The notes under the pieces are model-generated. The model was not told where the DNA came from. It did no database searches and worked only from the letters and a program-made list of their open reading frames with translations. A stretch of 64,000 bases of DNA, taken from NCBI GenBank assembly GCA_963832165.1, contig CAWHTE010000005.1:64001-128000 (forward strand). Reading direction: 5' to 3'. Of the stretch, positions 33,720 through 49,217 are shown piece by piece. Position numbers and translations under genes: made by a program. The DNA is from an uncultured delta proteobacterium. Its GTDB lineage: Bacteria > Myxococcota_A > UBA9160 > SMWR01. Within the stretch, counting starts at the first letter, position 1. Each line of letters opens with the position of its first letter.

Positions 33720-33796
33720 TGGTAGCGGTGGTTGGACTCGAACCAACGACCTACGGCTTATGAAGCCGCCGCTCTAACCGACTGAGCTACACCGCC
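33720..33796 (-). tRNA. tRNA-Met (CAT), probably elongator
   Basis: GGCGGTGTAGCTCAGTCGGTTAGAGCGGCGGCTTCATAAGCCGTAGGTCGTTGGTTCGAGTCCAACCACCGCTACCA: cloverleaf, TTCATAA loop, GTTCGA T-loop, encoded CCA; lacks the initiator GGG/CCC anticodon stem. Confidence 0.95.
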
Positions 33797-33825: not shown

Positions 33826-34467
33826 CTACGACTCTGGCGGAGGTATGGCCCCCTGTGCGGCTGTGCTCTCGCCCGGGCCACCCTTGAACACGGCCTTCTC
33901 GAGCGCCTCGAGCCGCCGGATCAGATCGCGGATCACGTCGGGCGACGGTCCTGCACTCGGTGCTGCGGCACTCGCGGGCGCGCCCGGCGGACCCGCACCG
34001 CTTGCGACCTTCGTATAGACGGCGACGCGATCCACGATCTCGTCGAGCTTCGGGATGATGTCGCCCATCGTGCCGCTCTGGATGAAGATGCGCCGTGCGG
34101 CGGCCGCCTCGGCTTCGCTCTTCACATCGAGCGGCAGGCAGTGCACGTCGAGGCTCGCGCCATCGCCGAACTGCGTGAACGCGCCGAAGATCAGATAGTC
34201 GCCGCCGCGCGCCTGGCCCCAGTCGAGCGCCTTCTTGAGCACCGTGGTGGCCGCGCCGGGATCCTCCACGCGTTCCACCTGCACGCGCCCGGTCTGCTCG
34301 AGGCGCGAAGAGATCATGTCGGTGATGCCGCGGCTCACGTAGCCGGGATTCGACGCCGCGGTGTGCACGACGATCGGCAGAATCACGATCCGCGTGCGAT
34401 CGGCCGCCGACGCGCTTCCGCTGAGCAGCAGCGCTCCCATGAGAGCCAGAACCTGCGCGACCCGCAT
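33826..34467 (-). CDS. Exported hypothetical protein (TolB-N/CsgG-like alpha/beta domain)
   Basis: Signal peptide (ASA-A), IVILPI...GITDMISSRL...GGDYLIFGAFTQFGDGASLD pattern. Confidence 0.6.
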   Translation of the reverse strand: MRVAQVLALMGALLLSGSASAADRTRIVILPIVVHTAASNPGYVSRGITDMISSRLEQTGRVQVERVEDPGAATTVLKKALDWGQARGGDYLIFGAFTQFGDGASLDVHCLPLDVKSEAEAAAARRIFIQSGTMGDIIPKLDEIVDRVAVYTKVASGAGPPGAPASAAAPSAGPSPDVIRDLIRRLEALEKAVFKGGPGESTAAQGAIPPPES

Positions 34468-34485
34468 CAGGCGCGCGATACTAGC

Positions 34486-36152
34486 TCACTCGGCGTTCGG
34501 CTCGCGGGCGTCGAGCGGCAGACGCACCAGGAACGCCGCCCCGCGCCCCTCGCGGCTCGTCACCTCGATCGTGCCGCGGTGATCGGTCGCGATCCGGTGG
34601 CACACCATCAGGCCGAGGCCCGTGCCGGCGTCGGGGCCCTTCGTGGTGAAGAATGGATCGAAAATCAGCTCGAGGTGCTCGGGCTTGATGCCCGGGCCCC
34701 GTGTCTCGCACCTCGATCTCCACGCCGTTGCCGTCCGGGGCCGGGCCCGTGCGCACGATCACCTCACCCTCGGGCGGCGTGACCGAGAGCGCATTCAGCA
34801 CGAGATTCAGCACCACCTGGTGGATCTGATCGCGCGCTGCGACGATCTTGGGCGTCGCGGACTCCGCGCGCAGGATCAGGCCCACGCGGCCGAGTTCCGC
34901 CTCGCGGTGCAGCAGCGTCACGACTTCGCGCGCCACTTCGTCGGGCCCGAACGTCTCGTACGAGATCCCTCCAGCGCCGGCCTGCCCGAGCCGGCGCATC
35001 GTGCGCAGCAGCTCGCGGATGCGATCCACTTCCTTCACCGTCAGCGCGTGATACTCGCCCCAGAATTCGAGGTCGGCCTCGGCGCGCTTCGCGGGCGCCA
35101 TCGCGAGGAACGTGTTGATCGCCACGAGCGGATTGTTGATCTCGTGCGCGAGACCCGCGGCGAGCATGCCGAGCGATCCGAGCCGGTCGGCCCGCCGGAT
35201 CTGTTCGCGCGAGCGGCGCAGGTCTTCGACGAGGCGCGCGTTCTCCACCGCGATCGACGCCTGATTCGAGAGCCCCTCGATCAGCGTGATGTCGTCGGCA
35301 GTGAAGCGCCGGCCACCGCGGCGGTTGTCGACCGTGATCGCGCCCATCAGGCCGTCCTTGCCGAACAGCGGCGAGACGAGGATCTCGTCGGCCGCGACCT
35401 CCGATAGCCACTGCCGCACCACGTTCGAGTACTCGAGCAGGTGCTCGCCGCGCAGCGTGAGCGACATGCCGTCCTCGAGCCGCGAGACGAAGTCGTGCGC
35501 GTTCTCCACCGTGAACTTGAAGCGCTGCAGGCGCGAGGTCGATCTCGTCGGGCACCGAGGGAAGAACCCACTCGAGGGAGCGGTTCTTCGGGTTGCGCAG
35601 CAGGAGATTCGCGCCGTCGTAGCCGAGATCCCTGCGCATCGTGGCGAGGATCAACGCGAGCAGCCGATCGAGCTCGAGCTCGCGGTTGAGCATTCCCGAC
35701 ACGCGGTTCAGCACCGTGAGCTCGTTCAAGAGCTGCGAGCGCTCGCGATCGAGCGCGTAGGCCTCGATGCCGCGCAGCAGCGTGGCGCGCACGTCCTCGG
35801 GGTTCCACGGCTTCGGGATGAAGCGGTAGATCGACCCGTTGTTGATCGCGTCCTGGAGCGTTGCTGCATCGCCGTAGGCCGTGACCATGATCCGGATCGT
35901 CTTCGGATCGATCTGGGCCGCGCGCGCGAGGAACTCGGTGCCGGTCATGCCGGGCATCCGGTGGTCCGAGATCACCACCGCCACGGGCTGGGTGTTGATG
36001 ATCTCGAGGCCCGCTTCGCCGCTCGTGGCGGTGACGATGGAGAACTCGCGCCGGAACGTGAGCTCGAAGATGCGCAGGTTCTCGGGCTCGTCGTCGACAT
36101 AAAGGATCGGATACTCGCGCGGCTCGCGGAGCATCTCGGGGTTAGGCCGCAT
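34486..36152 (-). CDS. Hybrid REC-GAF-histidine kinase, two frameshifts (near 35530 and 34695)
   Basis: ILYVDDE...ISDHRMPG...FIPKPW receiver; GAF-like middle; GLAHEINNPL, NLVLNA; DTGPG then IFDPFFTTK..GTGLGL in a third frame ending at TGA 34486. Confidence 0.85.
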
Positions 36153-39021
36153 CACGCCCCTCGCCGTTCGAGCCGGGGTGATCCGGCAGCGGGAAGCGCA
36201 TCACCACGCGGGCGCCTTCGCCGTGGACCGAGCCGATATCGAGCGATCCGCCGTGCTCTTCCATGATCCGCCGGCTGATCGAGAGCCCGAGCCCTGAGCC
36301 CCGGCCGACCTTCGTGGTGACGAACGGCTCGAACAGCCGGTCGCGCACCTCGGGTGCCACGCCCGGACCGTCGTCCCGGATCTCCACGAGCACGGCGCCC
36401 TCCTCGGTGCGGGCCGTCACCCAGACGGATCCGGCCCCGCGCTCGGATTGTTCGAATGACTCGACCGCATTCTTGAGCAAGTTCAGGAAAACCTGGTTCA
36501 GGGCGCGCACATCGCCGCGGATCTGCGGGAGCCCCTCGGGGATATCCGCATGGATCTGGACCCCAGCCGACGTCAGCGTGTGACCCATCAGGCGCAGCGT
36601 CGTGCGCAGTCCGCGCGCCAGGTCGACCGGCCCCCGGTCGCGGGACCCCGGTGCAGCGAAGTCGCGCAGGTCGCCCACGAGCGCCGCCGTGCGGTCGAGC
36701 CCCTCGGTGACGATGTCGGTGAGCTCGGTGAGCGTGGCCGCGCTCTCGTCGAAGCCGAGCTTCGTGCGCAGCGCCTCGAGTGCATCGATCTGGCGGCGCA
36801 TCGCATCGGTGTCGCCCGGGTCGATCGCAGCCACCTGCTCGGCCACCTTGCGCACGTCAGCGACCACCGCGCGCAGCGTGCGGGCCGCGTTCATCGCGAA
36901 GTTCACGGGGTTGTTGATCTCGTGGGCGACGCCGGCCGCGAGTTCACCCACGGCCGCGAGCCGTTCTGCGTGGACGAGCTGAGCGCCGGCCTGCTTGAGC
37001 TCCTCCATCGTGGCCATGAGCTCTTCGTTCGTGGTCTCGAGCAGCGAGTTGCGCACCGCGAGCTCCTGCTGCGCGTGGCGCAGCCGGACGAGGGATCGCA
37101 CGCGTGCGAGCAGCTCGCGCGGATGGAACGGCTTGGTGACGTAGTCGTCCGCGCCGTGCTCGAGCCCCTGGATCTTCATCTCGCGCTCGGCCTTCGAGGT
37201 GACGAGCACCACGGGCACGCTCGCGAGCGCCGGGTCGCGCTTGATCTCCGCGCAAAGCTCGATACCCGTCATCTCGGGCATCATTACGTCGGTGAGCACG
37301 AGGTCGGGCGCATGCGCGCGCGCGGCCTCGAGGCCCTCGCGTCCGTTGCGCGCCACGCGCACGCGGAACTCCTGTCCCACCAGGTGGTGGAGCAGGCGCC
37401 GCATGTCGACGTTGTCCTCCACCAGCAGCACCTCGGGCGTACCGGGCGGATGGTCGGGATAGTTCGGCCGCGTCTTGCGCTTCCACTGCCCTTCCGCGCG
37501 CTCGACGTTCCGCTCGAGCTCCACGTACTTCATCTGTTCCCGCAGATGGCCATCATCGCTGGCATCGCTGTCGGTGCCTTCGCTCGCCTCGCCGTCGGGC
37601 TCGTCCTGGCGGAGCTCCGCTTCCATTCCCGCAATCGCGCTGCGCAGTGCCGGTGAGAGCTCTGCCGCATCGATCGCCTCGGACACCGCGTCTTCTGCCG
37701 CGTCGCTCTCGCCTGCGGGCAGCACCACGTGGATCTGCGCGCCATGTCCGAGCCCGTGGCTCTCCGCCCAGACGCGCCCACCGTGCAGCTCCACGAGCTC
37801 CTTCACGAGCGCGAGCCCGATCCCCGTGCCTTCGTATCGGCGCGTGTTCGAGCCATCGACCTGCGCAAAGCGGTCGAAGATGCGCTCGAGCTGGTTCGGC
37901 GGGATCCCCGCGCCGGTGTCCGCCACGACGATGTGTACACCGCCTTTCCCTTCGTGCACACCGTGCACCCGGATCGCGCCGCCACCGTCGGTGAACTTCA
38001 GCGCGTTGCCGAGCAGATTGACGAGGATCTTCTCGAACGCCTCGGGATCGGCGTGGATCTCGGGCAGCTCCTCGAGCCCCTCCACTTCGAGCCGCACGCC
38101 TTTTCGTTCCGCGAGCGGACGCGCGCCCGAGATGATCCCCTCGCACACCTCCGCGAGCCGCACGGGCCGCCGCCGCACCTGGAGCTGTTGGCTCTCGATC
38201 TTCGCGAGGTCGAGCAGGTTGTTGATCAGCTTGAGCAGCCGAAGCCCGTTGCTCTGCACGGTTTCCAGATAGCTTTGCTGCATCGGGTTGAGCTCGCCGA
38301 ACTCTCCACCCAGCATCGCCTCTACCGGTGCCAGCGTGAGCGTGAGCGGAGTGCGCAGCTCGTGGTGGATGTTCGCCGTGAAGCGCGACTTCGCGGCGTC
38401 GAGCTCTTTCAGCTCGTCGCGCGCGCGCTCGATCTCGCGGCGCTGCAGGAAGTCGGAGAAGCGCATGCGATCCAAAAGAGCGCAGGCGACAACACTCTCT
38501 GCACCCGCCGCAAGTGGAAACGCCAAAGCGAGCAAATAGGCGTGCCAGCTTAGAGCAGCAGACTCAGTAATCGGAAGTGCACCTAACCCCACAACAAGTA
38601 CAGCAACGATTCCGGCCGCTTGCATTGCTGTAAGCGGAAGCAATACGGGCATTCCCAGGAACAGCAGCATCAGGCCCGGCGTGTATTGCCCACCGGCCCC
38701 TCCCACAACCCCAATTACTTCCAGCAGCATCCATCCCGCGCAGAGCACGCCAACGATGCAAGACGCCTTGGGGTATCGGCTTGCTGTAAATGTGGCGATC
38801 GCAATCATTACAAGATCGCAGGCGACTCGTACCCAAAGCATGCGCAGGAACAGTTCTCGAAAGACGAACCAATCCAATGCCATGAACGCCGTGGTAAATG
38901 CGGCGACGATAAGCGCACCGTTCCGCGTCGCTCGCGGCAGTTCCGCTAGCTCAACGTGCGCGCGATATTCGGCGTAGGCGGATCTGGCCTGGCGGTCGAT
39001 GATACCCATCGCCTCCGCCAA
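36142..39021 (-). CDS. Membrane hybrid sensor kinase TM-HisKA-HATPase-REC-HisKA-HATPase
   Basis: About 5 TMs, NIHHELRTPL, NLLGNALKF, GTGIGL, LLVEDN...LTDVMMP, GVAHEINNP, NLLKNA, GSGLGL; alternative ATG start at 39009. Confidence 0.92.
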   Translation of the reverse strand: MAEAMGIIDRQARSAYAEYRAHVELAELPRATRNGALIVAAFTTAFMALDWFVFRELFLRMLWVRVACDLVMIAIATFTASRYPKASCIVGVLCAGWMLLEVIGVVGGAGGQYTPGLMLLFLGMPVLLPLTAMQAAGIVAVLVVGLGALPITESAALSWHAYLLALAFPLAAGAESVVACALLDRMRFSDFLQRREIERARDELKELDAAKSRFTANIHHELRTPLTLTLAPVEAMLGGEFGELNPMQQSYLETVQSNGLRLLKLINNLLDLAKIESQQLQVRRRPVRLAEVCEGIISGARPLAERKGVRLEVEGLEELPEIHADPEAFEKILVNLLGNALKFTDGGGAIRVHGVHEGKGGVHIVVADTGAGIPPNQLERIFDRFAQVDGSNTRRYEGTGIGLALVKELVELHGGRVWAESHGLGHGAQIHVVLPAGESDAAEDAVSEAIDAAELSPALRSAIAGMEAELRQDEPDGEASEGTDSDASDDGHLREQMKYVELERNVERAEGQWKRKTRPNYPDHPPGTPEVLLVEDNVDMRRLLHHLVGQEFRVRVARNGREGLEAARAHAPDLVLTDVMMPEMTGIELCAEIKRDPALASVPVVLVTSKAEREMKIQGLEHGADDYVTKPFHPRELLARVRSLVRLRHAQQELAVRNSLLETTNEELMATMEELKQAGAQLVHAERLAAVGELAAGVAHEINNPVNFAMNAARTLRAVVADVRKVAEQVAAIDPGDTDAMRRQIDALEALRTKLGFDESAATLTELTDIVTEGLDRTAALVGDLRDFAAPGSRDRGPVDLARGLRTTLRLMGHTLTSAGVQIHADIPEGLPQIRGDVRALNQVFLNLLKNAVESFEQSERGAGSVWVTARTEEGAVLVEIRDDGPGVAPEVRDRLFEPFVTTKVGRGSGLGLSISRRIMEEHGGSLDIGSVHGEGARVVMRFPLPDHPGSNGEGRDAA

Positions 39022-39087
39022 TCGACCAATCGCGACTAATACTTAAGCCACGCTTCTGCGCGTGGCTCGCACGCGCACGGAGCCAGT

Positions 39088-41556
39088 CTACGGCCGGCGT
39101 GCGCTTACGATCACTGCTTGAGGGGGGTCGCCAAACCCTTGCCCCGCCTGGACTTCTACGAATCCCGCGTTCGCGACAGCAAAGCGAAGCTCCGATTCCT
39201 CCCAAAACCGGAAGCGCCCACTCTCCTCAAGATCAAGTAGCCGCGAACCATCGTTCAGAAAGTCACGCACAAGAGAATCAAAGGAGCTATCAACCGCCCT
39301 GCCGAGCAAAGTTCGGGCCTCAGGAGTCGCGTACTCGAGAAGGCCATCGTGGAAAAGCATCGTCGCGTCCGCATCCTGCACCATTGACGATAGAACTACG
39401 CGCCCACCAGGCATGAGAACTCGGTAGATCTCGCGAAGCAGCCGCTCAGGGCTCTCTACGTAGCTGATCAGCAGAGATGCGATTACTGCGTTGATTGACC
39501 CACTGGCGAGCGGAATCGCCATTCCTCTTCGGAGATCTAGGTTGCCAACACATTGCGTCGTCAAAACTTCACATTGCTCTTGTGTTGGATCCCTCCGCGA
39601 CCTAGCGCGAATCAGTGCATCCCGAACGAAATCGACCTCGATCACCTTGGCTCGTTTAGGCCCGAGGCCTCCGCGTAGACCTACGGAGAACTCGCCCGTC
39701 CCGGCTCCGAGATCCGCAACCCGCTGACCTTCTGCAAGCTGAAGCATCCGGACCTGCGCTTCCATGAAGTTTCGATAGGCGGCTGTTGCCGTAAGCAACT
39801 CCATACCTACGATACGACTTCGACCCAGCAGGTAATCCGCCCAGAACGCTCTCACATCAGGCTGCGCCAACGGGATTCTCGCCAGCTCCGCAGCGCGGGC
39901 GGCGGCAACGCGGGTGACTCGAGGCAGAACGCCGCTCTTCCGCTCGCCCAACGCCATCTCGCTGACCTCTTCCGCGATCAACTGAAATGTCGCAAGAGCC
40001 TTGTGCCCACTCCGCAGCTGGTGGCCAGTCGGAACTTCGATAATCCGCCTAGTCTCCGTGGGCCCGCACGACATGATCTCAATCACGCGGTTGAGATCCA
40101 TCCAGGCATCGTGTCGCCCGTGGATCCACGTGATCGGAATCTCGATGTGCGCCATTTCTCTCCGGGCGTCTTCCAGGAAGCCAATTCCGTTCTCTATCGC
40201 GTCCAAGCCCGTGTAGTCCATGTCAGCGACGACACCGGCTAGTTCGTGTCGACCAAATTTCATTCCTTGAAGCAGGCCACTTCCGAAGTCAATCCCACCG
40301 GAAATTGTCCTGAGCGCGGAATGCAAGTCAGCCATTCCGACGATTGAAACCCATCCGGAGACCCTATGATCGCGGGCGAGAGCATGCCTTGCTTCGACCG
40401 CGGCAAGGCTGAAAGTGACAAGGATGATCTTCCTTGGGGCCCGCGCTTGGTCGCTCAACAAGTAATCGACGGTTGCTGAGATATCCCGAGCCGCCTGCGA
40501 GAAGGTAAAGCGGAGATATTCGTCACCGGGCTGACGACAGTCTTGGTCAATGTGGGACTCTCCGCGCCGGTTAGTCCCGTCGAATCGAATTACCCGAATC
40601 GGCTCCCCGAGTCTTCGGAACGACTCCACGAGCGTCATCGCTAAAGGAAGCATCGTTTCCTTGGTGCGCCCCCACGCGGGTGGAATTATCACGCCAACAC
40701 CGTTCGAGTGCGCCCCCCATCTGTTCTCAATCGCACGAATTGACTCGCCTCGCTCGTTCTCGTACTCGACGACGTGCACCCGGTGCCGTCGCCTGTTAAT
40801 CGCGAAGCCCGCTTTCAGAGCAAGTGCGCTAACGCCCGCACGCGCAAGCTGCATCGTTTCGCGAACTGTCGGGCCACGACCGAGAATCTGATCTCGGCGG
40901 TCAACGTTGAGTAGCTCGCTCGTTGGGACGCTGCTTACTGACAGACCAACCTTCAACCATCCGGGCCGAGTGCTATCGGCGGTCCGATGACGGACGCGTC
41001 CAAATGCCGGCTCTCCCTCGTGACCAACTCGGAGCTCGATTTCGAGAGGAAGGCTCTCCGCCAAAGCCTGAGGCATCCGAATCCCAATGCCATGACGTGT
41101 CCGGTCCATCACCTCGACTTCGGACCATCTGCTTGGGGTTCCGCTCTGAATCATTACCCGGCGCGGATCCGCGTGACTCCGTCCGAGATCACGCCGCTCG
41201 GCGCGATAGACGGACCGGGGAATCGTTGCTCGCAGCGTTCGCGCTCCCACTGCGGAGACGGCTGAACATGCGAAGAAATACTGGGTACCGGCAAGCTCGA
41301 GGCTAAAGAAGAGCTGGGAGTTGGCATGTAGGCTGATGTTCGTCACGGCGAGCAACAGCGCGTTCAAATCGACGTGGAGAATCCTCGCTGTTCGGTCAAT
41401 CCCTGCGTTCAGCACACTTCCTTCTTGCGCTGCACGTTCCAGGATCGCCCGCACTTCGGTGGGATTCGAAATAGAATCCCGGTGGAGCGCTCCAAAGGTC
41501 TCGCTCGCAATGCGATCGAGTCTCTTCGTCGTCTCACCGCCTCTATGCGGCGACAT
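39088..41556 (-). CDS. YcgR-N/PilZ + LuxD-like alpha/beta hydrolase + class I SAM methyltransferase fusion
   Basis: ERRDLGR (RxxxR) and DRTRHG; IRFDGTNRRGES, TFSLAA, HGRHDAW, TGHQL; VADLGAGTG, EIYRVLMPGG. Confidence 0.75.
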   Translation of the reverse strand: MSPHRGGETTKRLDRIASETFGALHRDSISNPTEVRAILERAAQEGSVLNAGIDRTARILHVDLNALLLAVTNISLHANSQLFFSLELAGTQYFFACSAVSAVGARTLRATIPRSVYRAERRDLGRSHADPRRVMIQSGTPSRWSEVEVMDRTRHGIGIRMPQALAESLPLEIELRVGHEGEPAFGRVRHRTADSTRPGWLKVGLSVSSVPTSELLNVDRRDQILGRGPTVRETMQLARAGVSALALKAGFAINRRRHRVHVVEYENERGESIRAIENRWGAHSNGVGVIIPPAWGRTKETMLPLAMTLVESFRRLGEPIRVIRFDGTNRRGESHIDQDCRQPGDEYLRFTFSQAARDISATVDYLLSDQARAPRKIILVTFSLAAVEARHALARDHRVSGWVSIVGMADLHSALRTISGGIDFGSGLLQGMKFGRHELAGVVADMDYTGLDAIENGIGFLEDARREMAHIEIPITWIHGRHDAWMDLNRVIEIMSCGPTETRRIIEVPTGHQLRSGHKALATFQLIAEEVSEMALGERKSGVLPRVTRVAAARAAELARIPLAQPDVRAFWADYLLGRSRIVGMELLTATAAYRNFMEAQVRMLQLAEGQRVADLGAGTGEFSVGLRGGLGPKRAKVIEVDFVRDALIRARSRRDPTQEQCEVLTTQCVGNLDLRRGMAIPLASGSINAVIASLLISYVESPERLLREIYRVLMPGGRVVLSSMVQDADATMLFHDGLLEYATPEARTLLGRAVDSSFDSLVRDFLNDGSRLLDLEESGRFRFWEESELRFAVANAGFVEVQAGQGFGDPPQAVIVSARRP

Positions 41557-41650
41557 TCGTTCCTACCGCATCGTCTTGGCGAGAGACTGTCCGGGATCCC
41601 CGTACATGGCGGCCCATATATTCTCACGGCGGGGGGCCGGAAACGGTCTC

Positions 41651-41679
41651 TTTATACTACGCCCGTCTGAGCTTTCCAA
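41651..41679 (-). promoter_or_regulatory. Putative sigma70 promoter for the fusion gene
   Basis: TTGGAA-N17-TATAAA on minus strand about 95 nt upstream of ATG 41556. Confidence 0.5.
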
Positions 41680-41699
41680 GGCATCGGCGTCGGATCCCG

Positions 41700-44600
41700 C
41701 TAGGGAGCCTCGCGCAGTATCCGCTGCTCGAGGTTCCCCATACCGAGCGCCCTAGCTTGCTGCAGTGCCAGGCTCCAGTACTTCCGCCCGCTGCCCACAC
41801 GGTTCTGATCCAGCATCGAAGCGTTGTCAGCATACGTGTGCGCCAAGGCCGGGCCTGCTCCTGCCGCTCGATTCGCGACGATTGCCCTACGAAAGTGAGC
41901 CTGAGCGGTATTCCATTGACACATCAGGCCGGCTAGTACACCAAGGAATCGGTCGGTTGATCCCCAGCAGAAGCTGCTAAATCCCACGACCGCCATTTGT
42001 CCCGCAAAGCGCTCCCACAGGGAATACAGCTCGCGGACAAGCGCAGGAGACTCGAGCACTCGGCACGCTAGCGTCAGAGATCCTAGCGTCCCGAACCACG
42101 CGTTTCGTGGAAAGCTGCTCAGTGCACCTCTGGCAATAGCCGCCTCCATAACATCGCGTGCTTCATCAAGCTTTCCGAGTTCGCAATAGAGATAACAAAC
42201 ACCAGCCTGCCAGCCCTCTACTCTCGGAAAATCCGATGCGATTGCGACTACTGCGGGTTCAATCTCCTCCAAACCTCCCACATCAATCGCGGCCATAGCA
42301 CGCTGCAAAGCAAAACTGTGAAGCGCGTTCCGATCGTCAACCGCTAATCCCTGCCGTAGGAACTCCTCGCCATGCTCACGTGCCGCTGCATAATTCCCTC
42401 TCATTAGCGCGATAGTTGCCTGTAGCATCCCGACATACCAAGCGGCGCTCGGCCTGCGAGTTCGCTGAATCAAAGCTCCGAATCCACCAATCTCAATATC
42501 AACCTCACGCATCTCGCCAACCTGCCAAAGCGCAGTAATCCGGAGAATCGTCCGGAGGAGCGCCGTAGATCCATCCTCTGTATTAGCCGATGTGGATCGA
42601 CGAATGTGCTCATGCGGTGTTTCAACAGAATACAAGGCCAGGCTGCCTGCAGTCCTTGCGAACGAAACCATCTGCAAGTCTTCTCGCGCCTCAGCTGCGA
42701 CAATCGCTTCTTTTACAAGAGCCTTGAGTCGCTCCCGAGGCTCGTCGGACCAGTGAAGCGCCACAGCAAGTCTCGCAAGTATTCGCGGTCGCTCCCGCGC
42801 GTCGGCTGGAAGCTTTCCGAGCGCACCCTCAAGTAGCCCAACCAAGTCGCGGTCGTAGACCCCCGTCTCAATTGCCAATAGGTCCGGAGCAAACGACAGT
42901 GCAGCTCTAGCGCCGAGGTCAGGTCGCTTGCAGTGCTCCGCCAACCGAGCAGCTTCGATTAACGCGTTGCGTGAACTCTCGCGATTCCCAGCGAACCCGT
43001 ACGCCAAGCCCCGCTCCAAGCACAATTCACAGCGCAGCTCGCTGTCCTCTGGACACAGACGTTCCAAGAGGACGACCGCACGCTCGAGATGAGCCGCAGC
43101 TGAGTCGAATGCCGCCCGCTCAATGTCCCACCGAGCGGCACGTATTAAGTAGCTAATCGCCTTAGCGGCAATCGGAGTCGGATACGCGGCTGCGAAATGG
43201 CGCGCAATCTCAGCACTTAGGGGACCAAGCTCTACTCCAGCCATTTCCTCCATAGCGAGAGCGATGCGCCCGTTGTTCTCAGCGCGCTCCGCCGCCGTGA
43301 GCGACGCGCAGACAGCCTCTCTAACCAAGGCATGCGCGAATCGATAGTGACCGACTTCGTCGTCGTTTACACAAATGCCATGGTCTATTGCGACTTCGAG
43401 ACCGGCAAGAACTCGCGATGCATCCATCGCCAACGCATGCTCCAAGAGACCAGCAGAGAACTCTTTTTCAATCACGGCAGCCATTGCCAACAGACCCTTG
43501 ACGCTGGCGGGCAGCAACTCCGTCTGCCTCATTATTGAATCTCGAACTCCGCGCGGAATTGAGTACTCAAGAGGCTGCGCTGTCGTTAGAGATTCAAGGC
43601 GACCCGCATTCTCAAGTACATTCAGTACTTGCAAGACGAAGAATGGGTTTCCATTAGTCTTCGCGAGAAGGTCTCTCACCGCCTCAGCGCTCGGTTGAGT
43701 CCCCACGCGACGCTCGGTGATGATCGCCACATCGTTCGCACATAGACCCCCGAGCGTGATCAGTTCCGCACCTCGCGACCGGAGAACTGACGACACCATC
43801 CCGACACACTTTTGATAGCTACTTCCATGCGTCCTAAAAGTCCCAAACAGAAGCACGTGAGATCCATTCAACTCTGCTGCGAGATGCTGAAATAACAGCC
43901 TGGAAGCCTGGTCCGCCTCATGCAGATCATCGAGGAAGATCGCGATGGGCCCCAGCGATGAGAGCTTCCTAACGAGGGTCAGAATGCTCTCGAAGAGCCT
44001 ATGACGGGATGCTCGCGCGTCGTCCGTCGGACTACTTGCGGAGGGTGAGACTACTTCTTGCAGTTCGGGAAGAACCCAGGCGACCTCCTCAGCTCCATTG
44101 CTCATCGTGTGCACGATCCATTCTCGAGACTCACCTTCTACGAGCTGACGAAGTACCTGAGTCCACGGCCAAAGAGCCGGCGCTTCATCAGTGCCTACGC
44201 ATCTGGCGGATCCCACGCGGAAACCGCGATCGCTCGCGTGAGTTGCTGCCTGCAATAGGGCGGTCGTCTTTCCAATGCCGGCTTCACCAGTTGCAAGGAT
44301 CGTGCGATAGCCACCCGAAGCAGCATTGCTAAGCGAACGCTCCACAGATTCTAGAAATGACTCGCGTCCGAGGAACGAATGATCATCCTGAGTTCGCGAG
44401 CTTCTCTCTGCACGATCGAGCCGAACCAAAGCCGGTTCGACTTGCGCCACAAACTGCAGGCCATTCCCCCGAACTGTCCGAATGATTTGCTGAGCGTGTC
44501 CGGTGTCTCCAATGGCCCGTCTGACGGCGTGCACTGCAAAGCGAAGCGCCTGCTCGTTTACACGCACCCCCTTCCACACGGTGCGGTGAAGTTCCTCGCG

Positions 44601-44759
44601 CGAGACAACTCGGTTTCTGTTGTCGATCAGGTAGAACAGCAGGTCGAGTGGCCTTGCCTGAAGCTGTACTACACGTCCTCGCCGCAATAACAATCGTTCT
44701 GATCTGGAAAGTTCGTACTCGCCGAATCGAACGACAGCGACGTCCTCAAACGCGTTCAT
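41700..44759 (-). CDS. OmpR-type winged-helix + AAA ATPase + TPR-like transcriptional regulator
   Basis: RFGEYEL...VVSREEL...VRRAIGD...IRTVRGNG wHTH; GEAGIGKT Walker A; FLDDLHEAD Walker B; TNGNPFF; YRFAHALVRE; helical C-terminus. Confidence 0.85.
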   Translation of the reverse strand: MNAFEDVAVVRFGEYELSRSERLLLRRGRVVQLQARPLDLLFYLIDNRNRVVSREELHRTVWKGVRVNEQALRFAVHAVRRAIGDTGHAQQIIRTVRGNGLQFVAQVEPALVRLDRAERSSRTQDDHSFLGRESFLESVERSLSNAASGGYRTILATGEAGIGKTTALLQAATHASDRGFRVGSARCVGTDEAPALWPWTQVLRQLVEGESREWIVHTMSNGAEEVAWVLPELQEVVSPSASSPTDDARASRHRLFESILTLVRKLSSLGPIAIFLDDLHEADQASRLLFQHLAAELNGSHVLLFGTFRTHGSSYQKCVGMVSSVLRSRGAELITLGGLCANDVAIITERRVGTQPSAEAVRDLLAKTNGNPFFVLQVLNVLENAGRLESLTTAQPLEYSIPRGVRDSIMRQTELLPASVKGLLAMAAVIEKEFSAGLLEHALAMDASRVLAGLEVAIDHGICVNDDEVGHYRFAHALVREAVCASLTAAERAENNGRIALAMEEMAGVELGPLSAEIARHFAAAYPTPIAAKAISYLIRAARWDIERAAFDSAAAHLERAVVLLERLCPEDSELRCELCLERGLAYGFAGNRESSRNALIEAARLAEHCKRPDLGARAALSFAPDLLAIETGVYDRDLVGLLEGALGKLPADARERPRILARLAVALHWSDEPRERLKALVKEAIVAAEAREDLQMVSFARTAGSLALYSVETPHEHIRRSTSANTEDGSTALLRTILRITALWQVGEMREVDIEIGGFGALIQRTRRPSAAWYVGMLQATIALMRGNYAAAREHGEEFLRQGLAVDDRNALHSFALQRAMAAIDVGGLEEIEPAVVAIASDFPRVEGWQAGVCYLYCELGKLDEARDVMEAAIARGALSSFPRNAWFGTLGSLTLACRVLESPALVRELYSLWERFAGQMAVVGFSSFCWGSTDRFLGVLAGLMCQWNTAQAHFRRAIVANRAAGAGPALAHTYADNASMLDQNRVGSGRKYWSLALQQARALGMGNLEQRILREAP

Positions 44760-44897
44760 GAATTCATTATCCCATGCGAGCCGTTCTTCTAGTTGCCCCG
44801 AGGGGCACGGGGACTTCCGAAACAACAAACTGCTAACGAATCGCCGGAGGCGCCAAGTCTATGCTCCTCGTCACCCCAGAACGCCGAGGACGGCCTA

Positions 44898-46151
44898 ATG
44901 CAGCTCACTGAACGCAGCCGGGTCCTAGTCGCTGACCCCATCAGAGAGAACCGTGGAATGCTCGTCGAGACCCTCTCCTCGTGCGGAATGTCATGCATTG
45001 AAGCTGTGGACGGAGTATCTGCTTGGCGGTGCTTTACGGCAGATAGACCAGACCTCGTCTTGGCAGCCTTGCAGCTTCCTGGTCTAACTGCCCTTGACCT
45101 ACTCGCTCGCATTCGCGACGTCTCGACCACCCCATTCGTCGTTCACGCTCCCGCCGGCGAAATTCCCGCCGCCATCACTGCAATCCGCCGTGGTGCCGCC
45201 GATGTCATTCCCTTCCCTTGTCACGCGGACGAGCTATCCACCCGAATTAAGGCCGCGCTTGCGACTAACCCCGAACGCCGTCGCCGGACAGAAGCACCCG
45301 AATCGTTTGCAGGGCGAAGCCAAGCAACCTCGCGGATCCGAGAGCAAATCAGAGCGCTCGCTGGCTTGCGAATTCCAGTTCTGTTCTGTGGCGAAAAGGG
45401 TACCGGTCGCGACCACGCAGTTCGCTGCCTCGCACAATTGGACGGCGTGGGTGCGAATGATCTATTCAAAGTGTCGCCTGTTACCGGACGCCCCCTAACT
45501 CGCCATGAGGCATCAAAAGCAATCTACATCGATGAGATAGAGCGGCATTCTCGAGTAGACCAAGCCTACTGGTGCGAACGAATCAGCGACTCCGAAAGGG
45601 CCGCACAGGATGCTCCTCGGAGAGTCATCGTTTCAACGAATTCTGATCTAGACAGACTCTCGAGGCGAGACGAGTTCGATCCCAAGCTCGCCGGGATCCT
45701 CCTCCGCTTCGTGGTCAACATTCCGCCGCTTCGCGCTCGCCGTGAGGACCTAATTCCCCTTGTAGAGAGTCTCGGACTTCACGCCTCGCGCCGAATAGGG
45801 CGACCGAATACCAGATTCACTACACCTGCGCTGAAGCTATTGCAGCAACAAACATGGCCGGGGAACGTGTCTCAGCTCGCAGCGCTCATTGAGAAGCTTG
45901 TTGCATTTTCTCCCGACGGCTTGATCACTAGACGCCTCGTCTCGGCCCTGATCGAGGAAGCGCCAACGGGTGTCCCTTCGCTCCGCCGGAATGCGCTACG
46001 CCTTCAGCGCGACGAACTCCTCGCAATCCTCGACCAGACCGGCGGGAACCTCGCAGAGGCGGCTCGACGCATGAATATGAGCCGCGGCGCGGTGATCTAT
46101 CGCGCGCAGAAGTTTGGCCTGCTGGCGAAACGCGTGCGCGCGAACCCCTGA
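44898..46151 (+). CDS. Degenerate NtrC-like REC-AAA-Fis HTH regulator
   Basis: REC-like N-terminus, GEKGTG, IPPLRARREDL, WPGNV, GGNLAEAARRMNMSRGAV; phospho-Asp and GAFTGA absent. Confidence 0.8.
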   Translation: MQLTERSRVLVADPIRENRGMLVETLSSCGMSCIEAVDGVSAWRCFTADRPDLVLAALQLPGLTALDLLARIRDVSTTPFVVHAPAGEIPAAITAIRRGAADVIPFPCHADELSTRIKAALATNPERRRRTEAPESFAGRSQATSRIREQIRALAGLRIPVLFCGEKGTGRDHAVRCLAQLDGVGANDLFKVSPVTGRPLTRHEASKAIYIDEIERHSRVDQAYWCERISDSERAAQDAPRRVIVSTNSDLDRLSRRDEFDPKLAGILLRFVVNIPPLRARREDLIPLVESLGLHASRRIGRPNTRFTTPALKLLQQQTWPGNVSQLAALIEKLVAFSPDGLITRRLVSALIEEAPTGVPSLRRNALRLQRDELLAILDQTGGNLAEAARRMNMSRGAVIYRAQKFGLLAKRVRANP

Positions 46152-46152
46152 A

Positions 46153-47160
46153 TCAAGCCCCTGCGAGAGGGACCTTTCGCACCTTCACACCCGCCTCTCG
46201 CAGTAGATCGAGTGACGTCTGACCTAGCGGGTAGTCGGCGTTGTACACAACTTCGGTGAGGCCGGAATTGATGATCATCTTGGTGCAGATCAGGCAGGGG
46301 CTGAAGGTGGTGTAGAGGGTCCCGCCCTTCACCAGGACCCCGTGATAGGCGGCCTGGGTGATGGCGTTCTCCTCGCCGTGCGAGCACAAGCACTCATCGA
46401 GGCGGGTTCCGCCTTCCGCGAAGCTATTGCAGCGCGGACAGCCGCCCTCGTTGCAGTTGAGCGTGCCGCGCGGGGTTCCGTTGTAGCCCGTGGAGATGAT
46501 GCGGCGGTCGCGCGTGATCACGGCGGCCACCTTGCGCTTCACGCAGTTGCTGCGCGACGCCACCACGCGCGCAATGGCCATGAAGTATTCGTCCCAGCTA
46601 GGTCGTTCAAAAAAAAAGGAGCGCTCCAGCTGCGCCTGCACCTGGGCGTGTAGCTCAGCGAGCGTGCCGTCGTTACTCAGCGTGGTGTCGGCGAGCGCAT
46701 GCACGGCGAGGAGCTGTTGCGCGGCGGGGTCGGCGCCGCCGAGCTCGCGGCCCTCGAGCTCGCGCAGCTGTTCGAGCGTCTGCGGATCGCCGCCGCGCCC
46801 GCGCGCGCGCATGCGTGCTAGGCGAACGTTTTCGTCGGCGTCCACCCACCAGAGCTGGAAGCGACTCGTGCGCGCGCGCAGCACCTCCACCTCGGCAGGG
46901 TGGCGCACGGAATCGATCACGTAGTTGCGGTCGGGCAGCAGCTGTTCGGCGAGCAGCGTTGCCAGGCCACCGGGCCCGCGCGCCTGCCGGATCGCATTAC
47001 CGGCATCGATCATGCGCTCGCGCGTCTCTTCCTGGCCTTGGCGCCGCAGCTCGTCACGGATCACATCGGACAGCGACAGCGCGTAGAAGCTGCGCGACTG
47101 AAGGAAGGCGAGCACCTCACCCTTGCCGGCGCCGTTGCGGCCCGAGAGCCCGATGATCAT
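46153..47160 (-). CDS. P-loop nucleotide kinase-like domain fused to dCMP deaminase
   Basis: IIGLSGRNGAGKG, VIDSVRHPAEV; RPSWDEYFM, TGYNGTP, HGEENAI, PCLIC. Confidence 0.88.
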   Translation of the reverse strand: MIIGLSGRNGAGKGEVLAFLQSRSFYALSLSDVIRDELRRQGQEETRERMIDAGNAIRQARGPGGLATLLAEQLLPDRNYVIDSVRHPAEVEVLRARTSRFQLWWVDADENVRLARMRARGRGGDPQTLEQLRELEGRELGGADPAAQQLLAVHALADTTLSNDGTLAELHAQVQAQLERSFFFERPSWDEYFMAIARVVASRSNCVKRKVAAVITRDRRIISTGYNGTPRGTLNCNEGGCPRCNSFAEGGTRLDECLCSHGEENAITQAAYHGVLVKGGTLYTTFSPCLICTKMIINSGLTEVVYNADYPLGQTSLDLLREAGVKVRKVPLAGA

Positions 47161-47357
47161 CTCGCCCCCTCTCCTCGCGCTCCCATTCTACCAATGAGGT
47201 CGCCGCCGGGTCCCACCGGAATCGAGCCGCGCGGGGTTCCCTCTGGGGATTCCGAGGGTCGCTCGAGCGATCGCCCATCCCTGTGACCGTGACCATGACC
47301 TGTGACCGGATCTGTCACACCCGTCCCGCACGATGGAAGCTGCCCCGGTCCCGGGGA

Positions 47358-49217
47358 GTGAGCATCGTGGTCGACGGAAGCGGAAGCGCGCTGAGACGAG
47401 CGCGCTCGCGAGTGCCGACGTTCGAGACGGTCGCGCGATCGCGGGTCGCACCGCGGCTGCTCGGGATCGAGCCGCGCCGGTCTCCGCCGCCCCGGTCCGA
47501 GGATCTGGATGCGGAGCTCTACCAGCTAGCGCACTCGGCCGGTCCGCTCCGGCGCGCTCTCGCGCGGGTGGCCGGGAGATTGGTGGCCGTGCGCGGCTGG
47601 GAGCGGCTCGGCTTTGCGCGGCTCGCGGATTACGCGGTCGAACGTGCCGGAATCTCGCCGCGCGAGCTGCGAGACCTCGCCCGCGTCGATCGTGCATTCG
47701 AGTCTCTGCCGAGGCTCGAACAGGCCTTCCTCGCGGGTGAGATTGGCTGGACCGAGCTGCGCCTGCTGTGTCGCGTGGCGCAGCCCGACGACGAACGCGA
47801 GTGGCTCGCGCGCGCCTCGCGCCTCACCGCGTCAGCACTCGCACGCGAGGTGCGCCAGGTGGATCGACGCGCGCGAGAAGCCTCCGCGGGGATCGGCGCA
47901 CCCGAGGAAGACGATGAGCGCAGCGTTGGCGTGATCGTTCGCTGCACACCGTCGGTGCGCGCGCGCTGGTGGCACGCGCGCCAGGTCGCCAATCGCGTCG
48001 CGGGGCACACGCTCTCGGCCGGCGCGTTCCTGGAAGCGGTGACGGCCGAGGTGATCTCCGCGGTCGGGTTCCAGGGCGAGTCATCCAACGACTCCAAATC
48101 GGCGCCGCCGGCGATGAGCCACGAAGACTTCGAGCTGTCACGCGCAGACGCCAAACGAGTGCCACCCCAGGCGCCGCTCCAGCCCGGCCCACCTCCCCCA
48201 TTCATCACCTCACTCACGCACGACATCGAGAACGCGGATCCCTTCGAACTCGATGCGCGCCTGCGCCGCGCCGTCCGCCGTGAAACGCGCCGCCTCGCTC
48301 ATCTGGCCGCCCGGCTCGAGCAGGCCGTCGTACTCGGGCTCCCGCGTGCCATGGGATTCGCAAGCCTCGACATCTACGCCGAAGAGCGCCTGGGCATCGC
48401 CGCAAGCCGCGCGCGCGCATTGTTGAGGGTCTCGCGCGCGGCTTCCGAATGCCCGCCGCTTCGCAAGGCCTTCGCCACGGGTCGGCTCTCGTGGGTGCAG
48501 GCGCATGCGCTCGTTCCGCTTCTATTCGAGACCGCCACCCGCCGCTATCGCGAAGCCTGGGTTCTTCACGCCGAGCGCGTGAGCGTGCGGCGCCTGTCGG
48601 ACGACATCGAGCGCGCACTCGGCACCGGAGTCTTCGAGCCTCCGTCTCTCGCGCCGCCGCCTTGTCCGTCGGACCCCGTCGATCTCCAAATCGGTGCCAT
48701 CACACACCCGCCCTCGGATCGAGAGCACCCCGTCCCCCAGACCGAGCGGGTGCGCTTGTTCGTCGCCGCCTCGCTCGAGGTGGCCCACCTGTTCCGCGCG
48801 GCACTCGCCATCGTGCAGCGGAGGCTCGAGCACCTCCGGCGACGCCCCGCCTCCCAAAGCGAGGCACTCGAAGCGATGCTCGCGCACGCGGTCGCCACCT
48901 GGGTCGCGCAGGATCCCCACGATCACGCGCTGCGCGACCACCGTGTCTTCGAGCGAGACGGCTGGCGCTGCACCGTTCCGGGCTGCTCGTCCTACCGCAA
49001 CCTCCACGGACACCACATCGTGTTCCGCTCCCAGGGTGGTACCAACGCACTCAGCAACCTGACCACGCTCTGCTCGTGGCACCACCAGCGCGGTGTTCAC
49101 GGCGGCGTCATCTCCTGCTCGGGGCGGGCTCCCCATGCGTTGCATTTCGCGCTCCTGCTCCGCCCTAACCACCTGCCGCTGCTCTGTTATGGCCCGGGGG
49201 AGGTGCGCATGGGCTGA
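47358..49217 (+). CDS. DUF222-like / HNH endonuclease protein
   Basis: C-terminal RDGWRCTVPGC...HHIVFRSQGG...NLTTLCSWHH; two similar helical modules; start uncertain (ORF open from 47283). Confidence 0.85.
   Translation: MSIVVDGSGSALRRARSRVPTFETVARSRVAPRLLGIEPRRSPPPRSEDLDAELYQLAHSAGPLRRALARVAGRLVAVRGWERLGFARLADYAVERAGISPRELRDLARVDRAFESLPRLEQAFLAGEIGWTELRLLCRVAQPDDEREWLARASRLTASALAREVRQVDRRAREASAGIGAPEEDDERSVGVIVRCTPSVRARWWHARQVANRVAGHTLSAGAFLEAVTAEVISAVGFQGESSNDSKSAPPAMSHEDFELSRADAKRVPPQAPLQPGPPPPFITSLTHDIENADPFELDARLRRAVRRETRRLAHLAARLEQAVVLGLPRAMGFASLDIYAEERLGIAASRARALLRVSRAASECPPLRKAFATGRLSWVQAHALVPLLFETATRRYREAWVLHAERVSVRRLSDDIERALGTGVFEPPSLAPPPCPSDPVDLQIGAITHPPSDREHPVPQTERVRLFVAASLEVAHLFRAALAIVQRRLEHLRRRPASQSEALEAMLAHAVATWVAQDPHDHALRDHRVFERDGWRCTVPGCSSYRNLHGHHIVFRSQGGTNALSNLTTLCSWHHQRGVHGGVISCSGRAPHALHFALLLRPNHLPLLCYGPGEVRMG

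Follow-up and report, generated by a model that had tools for sequence, protein, structure and literature searches.

A widespread fusion of PilZ, LuxD-like hydrolase and methyltransferase domains as a candidate synthase for Phc-type lipid signaling

Architecture of the fusion protein

The 64,000-nucleotide window analyzed here (positions 64,001 to 128,000 of contig CAWHTE010000005.1, from an uncultured delta proteobacterium) carries on its minus strand a gene for an 822-residue fusion protein, followed by a gene for a hybrid histidine kinase with a six-transmembrane (6-TM) sensor domain. A sequence-only reading of the window had described the fusion as a three-part enzyme with a YcgR-N/PilZ module, a LuxD-like acyl-thioesterase domain and an S-adenosylmethionine (SAM) methyltransferase domain. 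Our analysis confirms this composition for the 822-residue open reading frame (ORF): the fusion is a real, widespread and undescribed three-part enzyme. The gene and its parts are as follows.

39088..41556, minus strand: 822-residue fusion enzyme, proposed signal synthase (YcgR-N/PilZ, LuxD-like hydrolase and class I SAM methyltransferase)
41203..41499, minus strand: YcgR-N (PilZN) barrel, residues ~20-118, from a fold match and weak profile matches
40927..41202, minus strand: PilZ barrel with RxxxR (41179-41199) and (D/N)x(S/T)xxG (41089-41106), from conservation and fold
39922..40788, minus strand: LuxD-like alpha/beta hydrolase with S383, D483 and H512, from fold, profile and conservation
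39091..39870, minus strand: class I SAM methyltransferase with motif I (39694-39714) and acidic D642, from Pfam and alignment

All three domain calls were upheld by fold, profile, Pfam and motif conservation. The motifs quoted in the sequence-only reading (ERRDLGR, DRTRHG, TFSLAA, VGMADLHSAL, HDAW, TGHQL and DLGAGTG) have computed positions that agree with it: ERRDLGR spans residues 120-126 (41179-41199), DRTRHG residues 151-156 (41089-41106) and DLGAGTG residues 615-621 (39694-39714), and the codons of S383, D483 and H512 lie at 40408-40410, 40108-40110 and 40021-40023. Conservation was counted in 111 full-length relatives out of the best 120 listed, excluding 9 of partial length. R121, R122, R126, G156, S383, D483, H512, D615, G617, G619 and D642 are invariant in all 111. 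An AlphaFold model of the fusion, built from the family alignment, has a pLDDT of 89.4 and a pTM of 0.89. Pfam recognized the methyltransferase (Methyltransf_11), whereas Acyl_transf_2 fell below its cut-off and PilZ went unmatched in the fusion protein itself; searches of PDB sequences with the whole protein or the family alignment returned only methyltransferases. No description of such a fusion had been known to the earlier reader, and our full-text literature search, which covered few subscription journals, also found none: it returned no paper on LuxD together with PilZ, or on a LuxD homologue together with a methyltransferase domain and a thioesterase. In a scan of 38900-41800, no sigma-70 promoter-like site was found, and terminators were at chance level.

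The N-terminal module has a two-barrel fold of the YcgR type. When its 193 residues were compared with 48,161 chains by VIA, 5y6f and 5ejl scored Z 13.2 and 5y6h and 3kyf Z 12.6, with 99 residues of the YcgR-N barrel aligned to 5y6h at a root mean square deviation (rmsd) of 2.6. Profile matches to PP4397 (3kyf/2gjg) and YcgR (5y6f) were weak (E 0.04-0.28). The RxxxR and DxTxxG motifs of the type associated with cyclic di-GMP (c-di-GMP) are borne out by R122, R126, G156 and D/N151 in 111 of 111 relatives. Position 151 is D in 100 and N in 11; position 153 is S in 93, T in 10, C in 7 and A in 1, and the protein studied here has Thr in place of the usual Ser. The rest of the module is ~42% conserved per column, compared to invariance of the motif residues. 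In a set of 80 distant copies described below, the two arginines of RxxxR and the glycine are kept in 77, 77 and 78, respectively.

The middle domain (residues 257-563) is closer to LuxD than to any generic hydrolase by both fold and profile, as the sequence-only reading had proposed. LuxD (1THT) ranked first in Foldseek (E 2.8e-14, TM 0.81 over the target) and scored Z 29.4 in VIA (rmsd 2.6, 274 residues aligned), compared to Z 26.0 for the best generic esterases, and a profile of the domain matched 1THT in the PDB with E 0.0028, the next match having E 0.17. D483 and H512 are in register with D211 and H241 of LuxD in the profile alignment to 1THT, and the nucleophile elbow, TFSLA, has an invariant serine outside a GxSxG context, S383, at a strand-helix elbow of the model; a 3-residue gap in the HMMER alignment shifts S383 relative to S114 of LuxD, so its register rests on position and conservation. 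Ser114 is the acylated triad residue of LuxD (PMC6279958). The fusion protein scored 13.9 bits with Acyl_transf_2 (PF02273; cut-off 20.3) and was unmatched by the LuxD family (NF052253) in an NCBIfam scan. The Pfam LuxD cut-off was reached by 13 of 31 relatives scanned (best 34.6 bits), and the same relatives scored 27-33 bits against the 420 needed for the NCBIfam LuxD equivalog. We therefore rejected identification as LuxD proper, given scores below the family cut-offs and no lux operon.

The C-terminal domain matches Methyltransf_11 with E 1.9e-12 (48.1 bits, cut-off 21.2) and has the class I features, D615, G617, G619 and D642 being invariant. It also has invariant residues specific to the family, namely W572, S694, Y699, S723, D728, D730 and G809-P-x-Q813. 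Among 120 listed matches of 133-455 residues, the strong apparent stand-alone relatives look like fragments of the fusion, mostly on short contigs, and beyond these the matches drop to generic arsenite/UbiE-type enzymes with E above 1e-12.

Distribution of the fusion family

Among 8000 candidates scored, 392 proteins are related to the fusion at E <=0.001; the best 120 listed are mostly full length, with 41-73% identity. The hydrolase domain taken separately has 451 representatives at the 50% level, 235 of them below 1e-30. Members of a second subfamily, ~900-1200 residues long, carry one or two further PilZ domains at the N terminus, and in some the methyltransferase has an insertion. For the short subfamily, source names and Atlas point to Myxococcota; Atlas clusters also occur in Nitrospirota, Verrucomicrobiota and Omnitrophota, and one named member belongs to Spirochaetia. 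No full-length relative was found in a plasmid collection, and a related-locus search of genome contigs returned 1 locus only. Within 225 genomes of the class, 80 carry the LuxD-like domain, 98 the 6-TM sensor and 76 both. The genome of the window (G000) measures 5.5 Mb, with ~70% GC.

Linkage to a 6-TM sensor kinase

The gene downstream of the fusion and its sensor part are as follows.

36142..39021, minus strand: hybrid histidine kinase 6TM-HisKA-HATPase-REC-HisKA-HATPase, proposed receptor, starting 66 bases past the fusion stop
38400..39021, minus strand: 6-TM sensor domain of the kinase, homologous to a PhcS-type kinase and to the ImcA 6-TM domain; low GC content at third codon positions (GC3)

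This arrangement is common in the class. In 68 of the 80 fusion-bearing genomes, no more than 5 kb separates the fusion from a sensor downstream of it on the same strand, with direct adjacency in 35 and one gene-sized gap in 33. In the other 12, the two are on separate contigs (5), the sensor is upstream (2) or far off (1), or no match was found (4). In the 21 loci examined gene by gene (those of the window and 20 relatives), the fusion is followed by a 6TM-kinase-REC-kinase gene in 17. The other four comprise three that are cut off by the end of the contig and G037, where the kinase is at a different place.

Linkage extends to distant relatives. We assembled 80 metagenomic loci of the 900-1200-residue subfamily, with 24-54% identity to the query P0222 and 34-72% GC. 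The sensor is within 4 kb downstream in 32 and elsewhere in the locus in 1, while 32 loci are too short; among informative clusters at 60% identity, 16 of 18 have the sensor. An HD-type domain, which we read as HD-GYP because of its REC-HD layout (after 10.1101/2021.11.05.467447), is present in the kinase or the next gene in 23 of the 33 sensor-bearing distant loci. An acyl-CoA-ligase-like gene is directly downstream of the fusion in 30 of the 80, and a B12 radical SAM gene occurs in ~18 of the 80. This linkage to a kinase, rather than to lux genes, points to the fusion as a signal synthase.

Homology of the sensor extends to ImcA, whose 6-TM domain (8WCN) is matched across 189 profile positions (E 4e-8). 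Pfam and NCBIfam gave weak MASE8 matches in 7 of 30 rows, and Atlas labels are mixed MASE. The top NCBIfam match of the kinase was LvrA/LvrB (NF047465/6; score 331, cut-off 1200), an identity that we rejected because only the cytoplasmic layout is alike and the sensor of LvrA is PAS. In two loci (L169:9928-11115 and L174:3186-4391), the same sensor is joined to a GGDEF domain (MASE8-GGDEF), and no synthase lies in the vicinity; such proteins could possibly be eavesdropping receptors that make c-di-GMP directly.

In a clade of nine distant loci (L125, L128, L130, L131, L133, L134, L135, L140 and L141), the nucleophile is Asp instead of Ser (T/S-F-D-M-A), and the sensor kinase is lacking in all 8 that are informative. 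A 4'-phosphopantetheinyl transferase gene is directly downstream and cyclic nucleotide (cNMP)-GGDEF genes are upstream. Candidate readings from sequence are that these proteins are inactive or that they use an Asp nucleophile in another role. Loss of both the serine and the sensor would be consistent, as a single event, with a link between catalysis and the receptor.

Replacement of the fusion by PhcB-like methyltransferases

The genomes with the sensor but without the fusion show what else can occupy the same slot. Eighteen of 22 such genomes were examined. In 8 the contig ends before the slot, in 1 there is a fragment of the fusion methyltransferase, and 2 have a different, shorter receptor (GGDEF or a simple kinase) with no synthase seen. 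All 7 informative genomes have a PhcB-like methyltransferase directly upstream of (an MMPL gene and) a full hybrid kinase, partnered by a cyclopropane synthase in G016, G135 and G200 and by a fatty-acid desaturase in G152, G168, G171 and G178. A second sensor copy in G151 likewise has a PhcB-like methyltransferase in this slot. Among 120 listed relatives of the G016 protein, 14 carry the source name "3-hydroxypalmitic acid methyl ester biosynthesis protein", the annotation of PhcB, a methyl-ester autoinducer synthase (PMC11298618, PMC8578825).

A plasmid operon of Paraburkholderia graminis (L177, NZ_CP024936), with the order methyltransferase-kinase-regulator-regulator, connects these genes to the Phc system. 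Its methyltransferase is 31% identical to that of G016 (E 3e-39). We take the operon as phcB-phcS-type because the 468-residue methyltransferase has Arg22 and the 445-residue kinase has His233, which fit the conserved R22 of PhcB (PMC6989110) and H230 of PhcS (PMC11960443). Our sensor profile matches the N-terminal domain of this kinase (hhalign P 99.4%, E 4e-21). It scored 101 bits on the kinase, whereas no score exceeded 9.7 among 500 shuffles and the next G000 ORF had 8.0. From this match we infer that the kinase in the window has a PhcS-type sensor, by way of the L177 homologue and not of the Ralstonia proteins themselves.

The methyltransferase of the fusion is a different matter. It resembles the PhcB-like family only over the Rossmann core (hhalign P 60%, 18% identity), and the invariant K-P-x-G-Y-x-G-D segment of PhcB-like proteins has no counterpart in the fusion-family alignment. 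PhcB orthology was rejected on these grounds.

Our literature search, with few subscription journals covered, found no PhcB-type quorum-sensing system in myxobacteria and nothing on PhcB substrates or the range of PhcB homologues, nor were data on PhcB domains found in PMC9102662. Several related proteins were encountered along the way. When the N-terminal 110 residues encoded at L177:5638-7044 were scored with a profile built from the PilZ-like N-termini of relatives of this PhcB-type protein, they reached 13.6 bits, compared to 7.5 for the best of 500 shuffles. This is a weak hint that the unexplained N-terminal part of PhcB, where R22 is located, could be a degenerate PilZ barrel lacking RxxxR. 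At L146:8675-10135, L160:7315-8853, L171:3908-5497 and L172:5156-6610, a cyclopropane synthase is adjacent to PilZ-PhcB-like methyltransferases whose N-termini share a conserved RxxR-type motif; this family of at least 286 proteins is, by its sequence features, a candidate second c-di-GMP-gated signal synthase. On a plasmid of the cyanobacterium Pseudanabaena sp. PCC 7367 (NC_019690; L178:6082-8701), a PhcB-like methyltransferase gene is convergent with a gene for a kinase with the same sensor (54 bits), accompanied by a receiver protein and an adjoining Tn3 transposon, a mobile Phc-like module.

Apparent exchange of synthase and sensor

Base composition divides the kinase gene at the junction between sensor and kinase core, inside the following feature.

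38200..46100, no strand: low-GC segment, 55-62% compared to ~70% for the genome, its left edge lying within the kinase gene where the sensor and kinase parts meet

GC3 drops from 0.90 (range 0.87-0.93) in the kinase core to 0.63 in the sensor, and the fusion gene has ~0.62 (range 0.58-0.67). Among 21 long-N-terminus kinases of G000, 1 has a GC3 step of 0.25 and the next largest step is 0.05; a step of at least 0.14 is present in 6 of 19 relatives. Sensor GC3 is more closely correlated with that of the synthase (rho 0.91) than with that of the kinase core (0.76). A quick tree of 59 sensors places those linked to the short fusion (23) on one side of a branch (SH-aLRT 97), separate from the 8 PhcB-linked sensors of the class. 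In a FastTree analysis of 27 kinases, 7 PhcB-linked sensors cluster together with the fusion-labelled G055, whose linkage spans two contigs, and the G016 kinase core falls among fusion-linked cores of its own family. Sensors cluster by synthase type, and kinase cores more by host family. Partial Mantel correlations with the sensor given the core, over 19 genomes, were 0.35 for the hydrolase (p 0.01) and 0.26 for the methyltransferase (p 0.04), values that are weak and also overstated, kin not being independent. These comparisons, and the low GC3 shared by synthase and sensor relative to the core, are suggestive of exchange but do not amount to formal tests; the two appear to have been swapped together as a cassette on a resident kinase core.

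In one locus (L043, genome G056), two sensor-bearing kinases flank the fusion and a P450 gene; the upstream kinase has low GC3 throughout, and the downstream kinase only in its sensor part.

Other genes in the neighborhood

The remaining genes around the fusion are as follows.

34481..36155, minus strand: REC-GAF-HisKA-HATPase gene, PhcR-like layout plus GAF, with two frameshifts
33826..34467, minus strand: 213-residue secreted TolB_N-like protein, at the operon end in 11 of the 21 loci
41700..44828, minus strand: winged helix-turn-helix (wHTH)-STAND(AAA_16)-TPR regulator, inside the low-GC segment, low GC3
44793..46151, plus strand: NtrC-like REC-sigma54-HTH regulator, inside the low-GC segment, in 4 of the 21 loci

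The REC-GAF-HisKA-HATPase gene is present in 12 of the 21 loci, its likeness to PhcR being one of domain layout. In the window it has frameshifts near 35535 and 34695 relative to an intact relative, for which a broken gene and a long-read assembly error are candidate readings. Lipid-handling neighbors include MMPL (12 of 21 loci), LolA-like (5 of 21) and P450 (3 of 21) genes. The STAND regulator, possibly an output or an autoregulator, lies close to the fusion in 7 of 21 loci, and five others (L156, L163, L164, L165 and L167) have it upstream of a PhcB-like gene. In 13 of 21 loci the cassette is bordered upstream by a conserved gene, located at 46153-47160 (minus strand) in the window, for a fusion of nucleotide-kinase-like and deoxycytidylate (dCMP) deaminase domains; tRNA-Met (33720-33796) marks the other cassette end in the window. 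Farther out, 47283-49217 (plus strand) encodes a 644-residue protein with a C-terminal HNH endonuclease domain.

Discussion

We propose, with rather more confidence than doubt, that the fusion makes a methylated fatty-acid autoinducer under the control of c-di-GMP, as the non-orthologous synthase of a Phc-type system. The basis of this proposal is the domain content, motif conservation, linkage, slot replacement, sensor homology and compositional step described above, from which activity, product and binding are predicted. The LuxD-like domain would convert acyl-ACP (acyl carrier protein) or acyl-CoA to free fatty acid at S383, and the methyltransferase would methylate the fatty acid, most simply to a methyl ester like that of PhcB, a step suggested by the interchange with PhcB-like genes in the slot. 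Because its motifs are invariant, the YcgR-N/PilZ module is predicted to bind c-di-GMP and could turn production up or down. The product would leave the cell, in many relatives through an MMPL or LolA-like exporter encoded between the two genes, and would be bound by the 6-TM sensor of the adjoining kinase, which would signal to the REC-GAF-kinase. In distant lineages, the output would go to HD-GYP and c-di-GMP would be degraded, closing a feedback loop on the synthase. Lineages may exchange synthase and sensor domain together, as a cassette that sets specificity and is joined to a resident kinase core. The fusion probably fills the same role as the PhcB quorum-sensing synthase. We hold more tentatively a fuller version, a widespread quorum-sensing language used mostly by uncultured bacteria, in which one polypeptide releases and methylates a fatty acid under direct allosteric c-di-GMP control, the receptor feeds back on c-di-GMP, one receptor family works with either PhcB or the fusion as synthase, synthase and sensor domain pass between lineages as pherotype cassettes, and the product may be a chemically new autoinducer.

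Several observations weigh against this proposal. The genes are 1.45 Mb apart in G037, and the sensor is upstream in G180 and G215. Fifteen distant loci have no sensor despite enough flank, and one sensor-less distant group has an intact Ser (L070, L072 and L075-L077). Four of the seven replacement genomes (G152, G168, G171 and G178) belong to one genus. The identification of the L177 protein as PhcB draws on annotation names, size and residue numbers. In the window, MMPL is absent and the REC-GAF-kinase gene downstream carries frameshifts. Atlas clusters of 555-563 residues lack PilZ, which suggests that c-di-GMP control is not essential to the core. The methyltransferase is not a PhcB orthologue, so its product may differ from a plain methyl ester, and the separate grouping of the sensors of the two synthase types also suggests different products. 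The 6-TM domain of ImcA is reported to act through protein contact with IsmP, and a lipid ligand is unmentioned in the available part of that report (PMC10904736). The trees are quick or FastTree analyses of kin that are not independent, and the proposed function is a prediction from sequence and modeled structure.

Of the alternatives, the one that survives best, though we consider it unlikely, is that the methylated lipid stays in the membrane or reports fatty-acid flux in the same cell, and that the kinase reads an internal or envelope cue. Gene linkage is blind to the distinction between private and public signals, MMPL transporters move membrane lipids too, and the cyclopropane synthase and desaturase partners of the PhcB-like genes are classic membrane-lipid enzymes. 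The homologous domain of ImcA, moreover, uses an intramembrane partner (PMC10904736). What argues for a released signal instead is the interchange with PhcB-like genes together with the PhcS-type sensor, and the co-swapping of synthase and sensor, which is expected of communication types and hard to fit to a housekeeping cue.

A slightly less likely alternative is that the signal belongs to a new chemical class, with the LuxD-like domain transferring the acyl group to an amine, alcohol or aromatic, or with the methyl group going to a hydroxyl, nitrogen or carbon. LuxD has been termed an acyl-transferase (PMC6279958), the methyltransferase is set apart by invariant residues peculiar to it, with none of its listed matches a close stand-alone relative, and fusion-linked sensors form their own group. 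Although the P450, radical SAM and acyl-CoA-ligase neighbors suggest tailoring, no constant acceptor-making gene is present in the loci, and the two-gene minimal form (35 of the 68 adjacent cases are direct) needs common substrates only.

It is improbable, in our view, that the fusion is a make-and-break enzyme whose methyltransferase forms a methyl ester and whose hydrolase destroys it (as an esterase, in quorum quenching), with c-di-GMP setting the direction. By fold, LuxD, an acyl-ACP thioesterase, is clearly nearer than any other protein, and it gave the sole significant profile match, even if carboxylesterases come second with Z ~26. An RpfB-like ligase adjoins the fusion in 30 of 80 distant copies, as would suit a thioesterase that releases free fatty acids (PMC4504480). 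PhcB-like synthases do occupy the slot without a hydrolase, so a thioesterase is not obviously needed for synthesis.

LuxD-like domains are best known from lux operons. The genome of the window has LuxE-like and LuxC-like genes side by side (G000:C7:710367-712624 and C4:260975-263010). That the LuxD-like domain supplies a LuxC/LuxE fatty-acid reductase with an aldehyde precursor, as in lux operons, is nevertheless very improbable, as these genes are on contigs other than that of the fusion, LuxE-like matches occur in 50 of 61 relatives (presumably a non-luminous group) with or without it, and luxC/E is absent from the recurrent neighbor families of the loci examined; we rejected a link to bioluminescence for these reasons.

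If our proposal of Phc-type signaling is correct, lipid quorum sensing of a kind mainly known from Ralstonia and its relatives would be broadly distributed among bacteria and would have two or more unrelated types of synthase serving one 6-TM receptor family; it would be present in about one-third of the sampled genomes of an uncultured class. We know of no autoinducer synthase directly gated by c-di-GMP, and the fusion would be a candidate. The proposal would also provide a ligand hypothesis for the orphan MASE8-like sensor family, give the LuxD fold a second biological setting and explain, through the fusion, the origin of the free fatty acid used to make a methyl-ester signal. For microbial production of fatty-acid methyl esters, an enzyme that joins thioesterase and methyltransferase and uses acyl-ACP could be of interest.

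Comparison with known systems

The closest parallel is the Phc system of Ralstonia, Cupriavidus and Paraburkholderia, which, as described in the available parts of the literature, shares the order methyltransferase-membrane kinase-receiver+kinase (PMC8578825, PMC11298618, PMC6989110, PMC11960443). Its kinase sensor domain is homologous, and PhcB-like genes take the same slot in relatives of the fusion. By contrast, the methyltransferase of the fusion is of another family and is joined to a LuxD-like thioesterase and to a YcgR-N/PilZ module that is intact. The receptor here is a hybrid kinase-REC-kinase or kinase-REC-HD-GYP, and no PhcA-like LysR regulator is among the recurrent neighbors here. 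This candidate for Phc-type lipid signaling with a non-orthologous, c-di-GMP-gated two-step synthase is the reading that we favor on balance.

In the comQXP system, the sensor part of the receptor is the variable part. The apparent joint swapping of synthase and sensor has a parallel in comQXP pherotypes, whose polymorphism is likewise coupled (PMC4408185). The diffusible signal factor (DSF) genes rpfB/rpfF/rpfC/rpfG of xanthomonads resemble the distant subfamily in combining a thioesterase-type synthase, an acyl-CoA ligase, a membrane hybrid kinase and HD-GYP, whereas RpfF is described as a crotonase that makes cis-2-unsaturated acids, without a methyltransferase or PilZ in the available part of that account (PMC4504480). 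ImcA, a PA1851-type diguanylate cyclase (8WCN), has a homologous 6-TM domain, but its output is GGDEF and its control is reported to be by the partner IsmP, and the accessible part of its description considers no linked synthase (PMC10904736). LvrA/LvrB of Leptospira share the layout of kinase-REC-kinase followed by REC-kinase, whereas LvrA is cytosolic, with a PAS sensor and, in the portion of the source available, no linked synthase (PMC5863495).

LuxD of Vibrio harveyi (1THT), a myristoyl-ACP thioesterase/acyltransferase, is the best fold match of the hydrolase, with a non-GxSxG elbow and Asp and His in register; the domain here differs in its 16-17% identity, its scores below cut-offs, and its position between PilZ and a methyltransferase, outside luxCDABE. 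Finally, YcgR, PP4397 and MrkH (5Y6F, 3KYF and 5EJL) share the two-barrel fold (Z 12.6-13.2) and the RxxxR and (D/N)xSxxG motifs with the N-terminal module, but their modules act on the motor or DNA, whereas that of the fusion is joined to a two-step enzyme.

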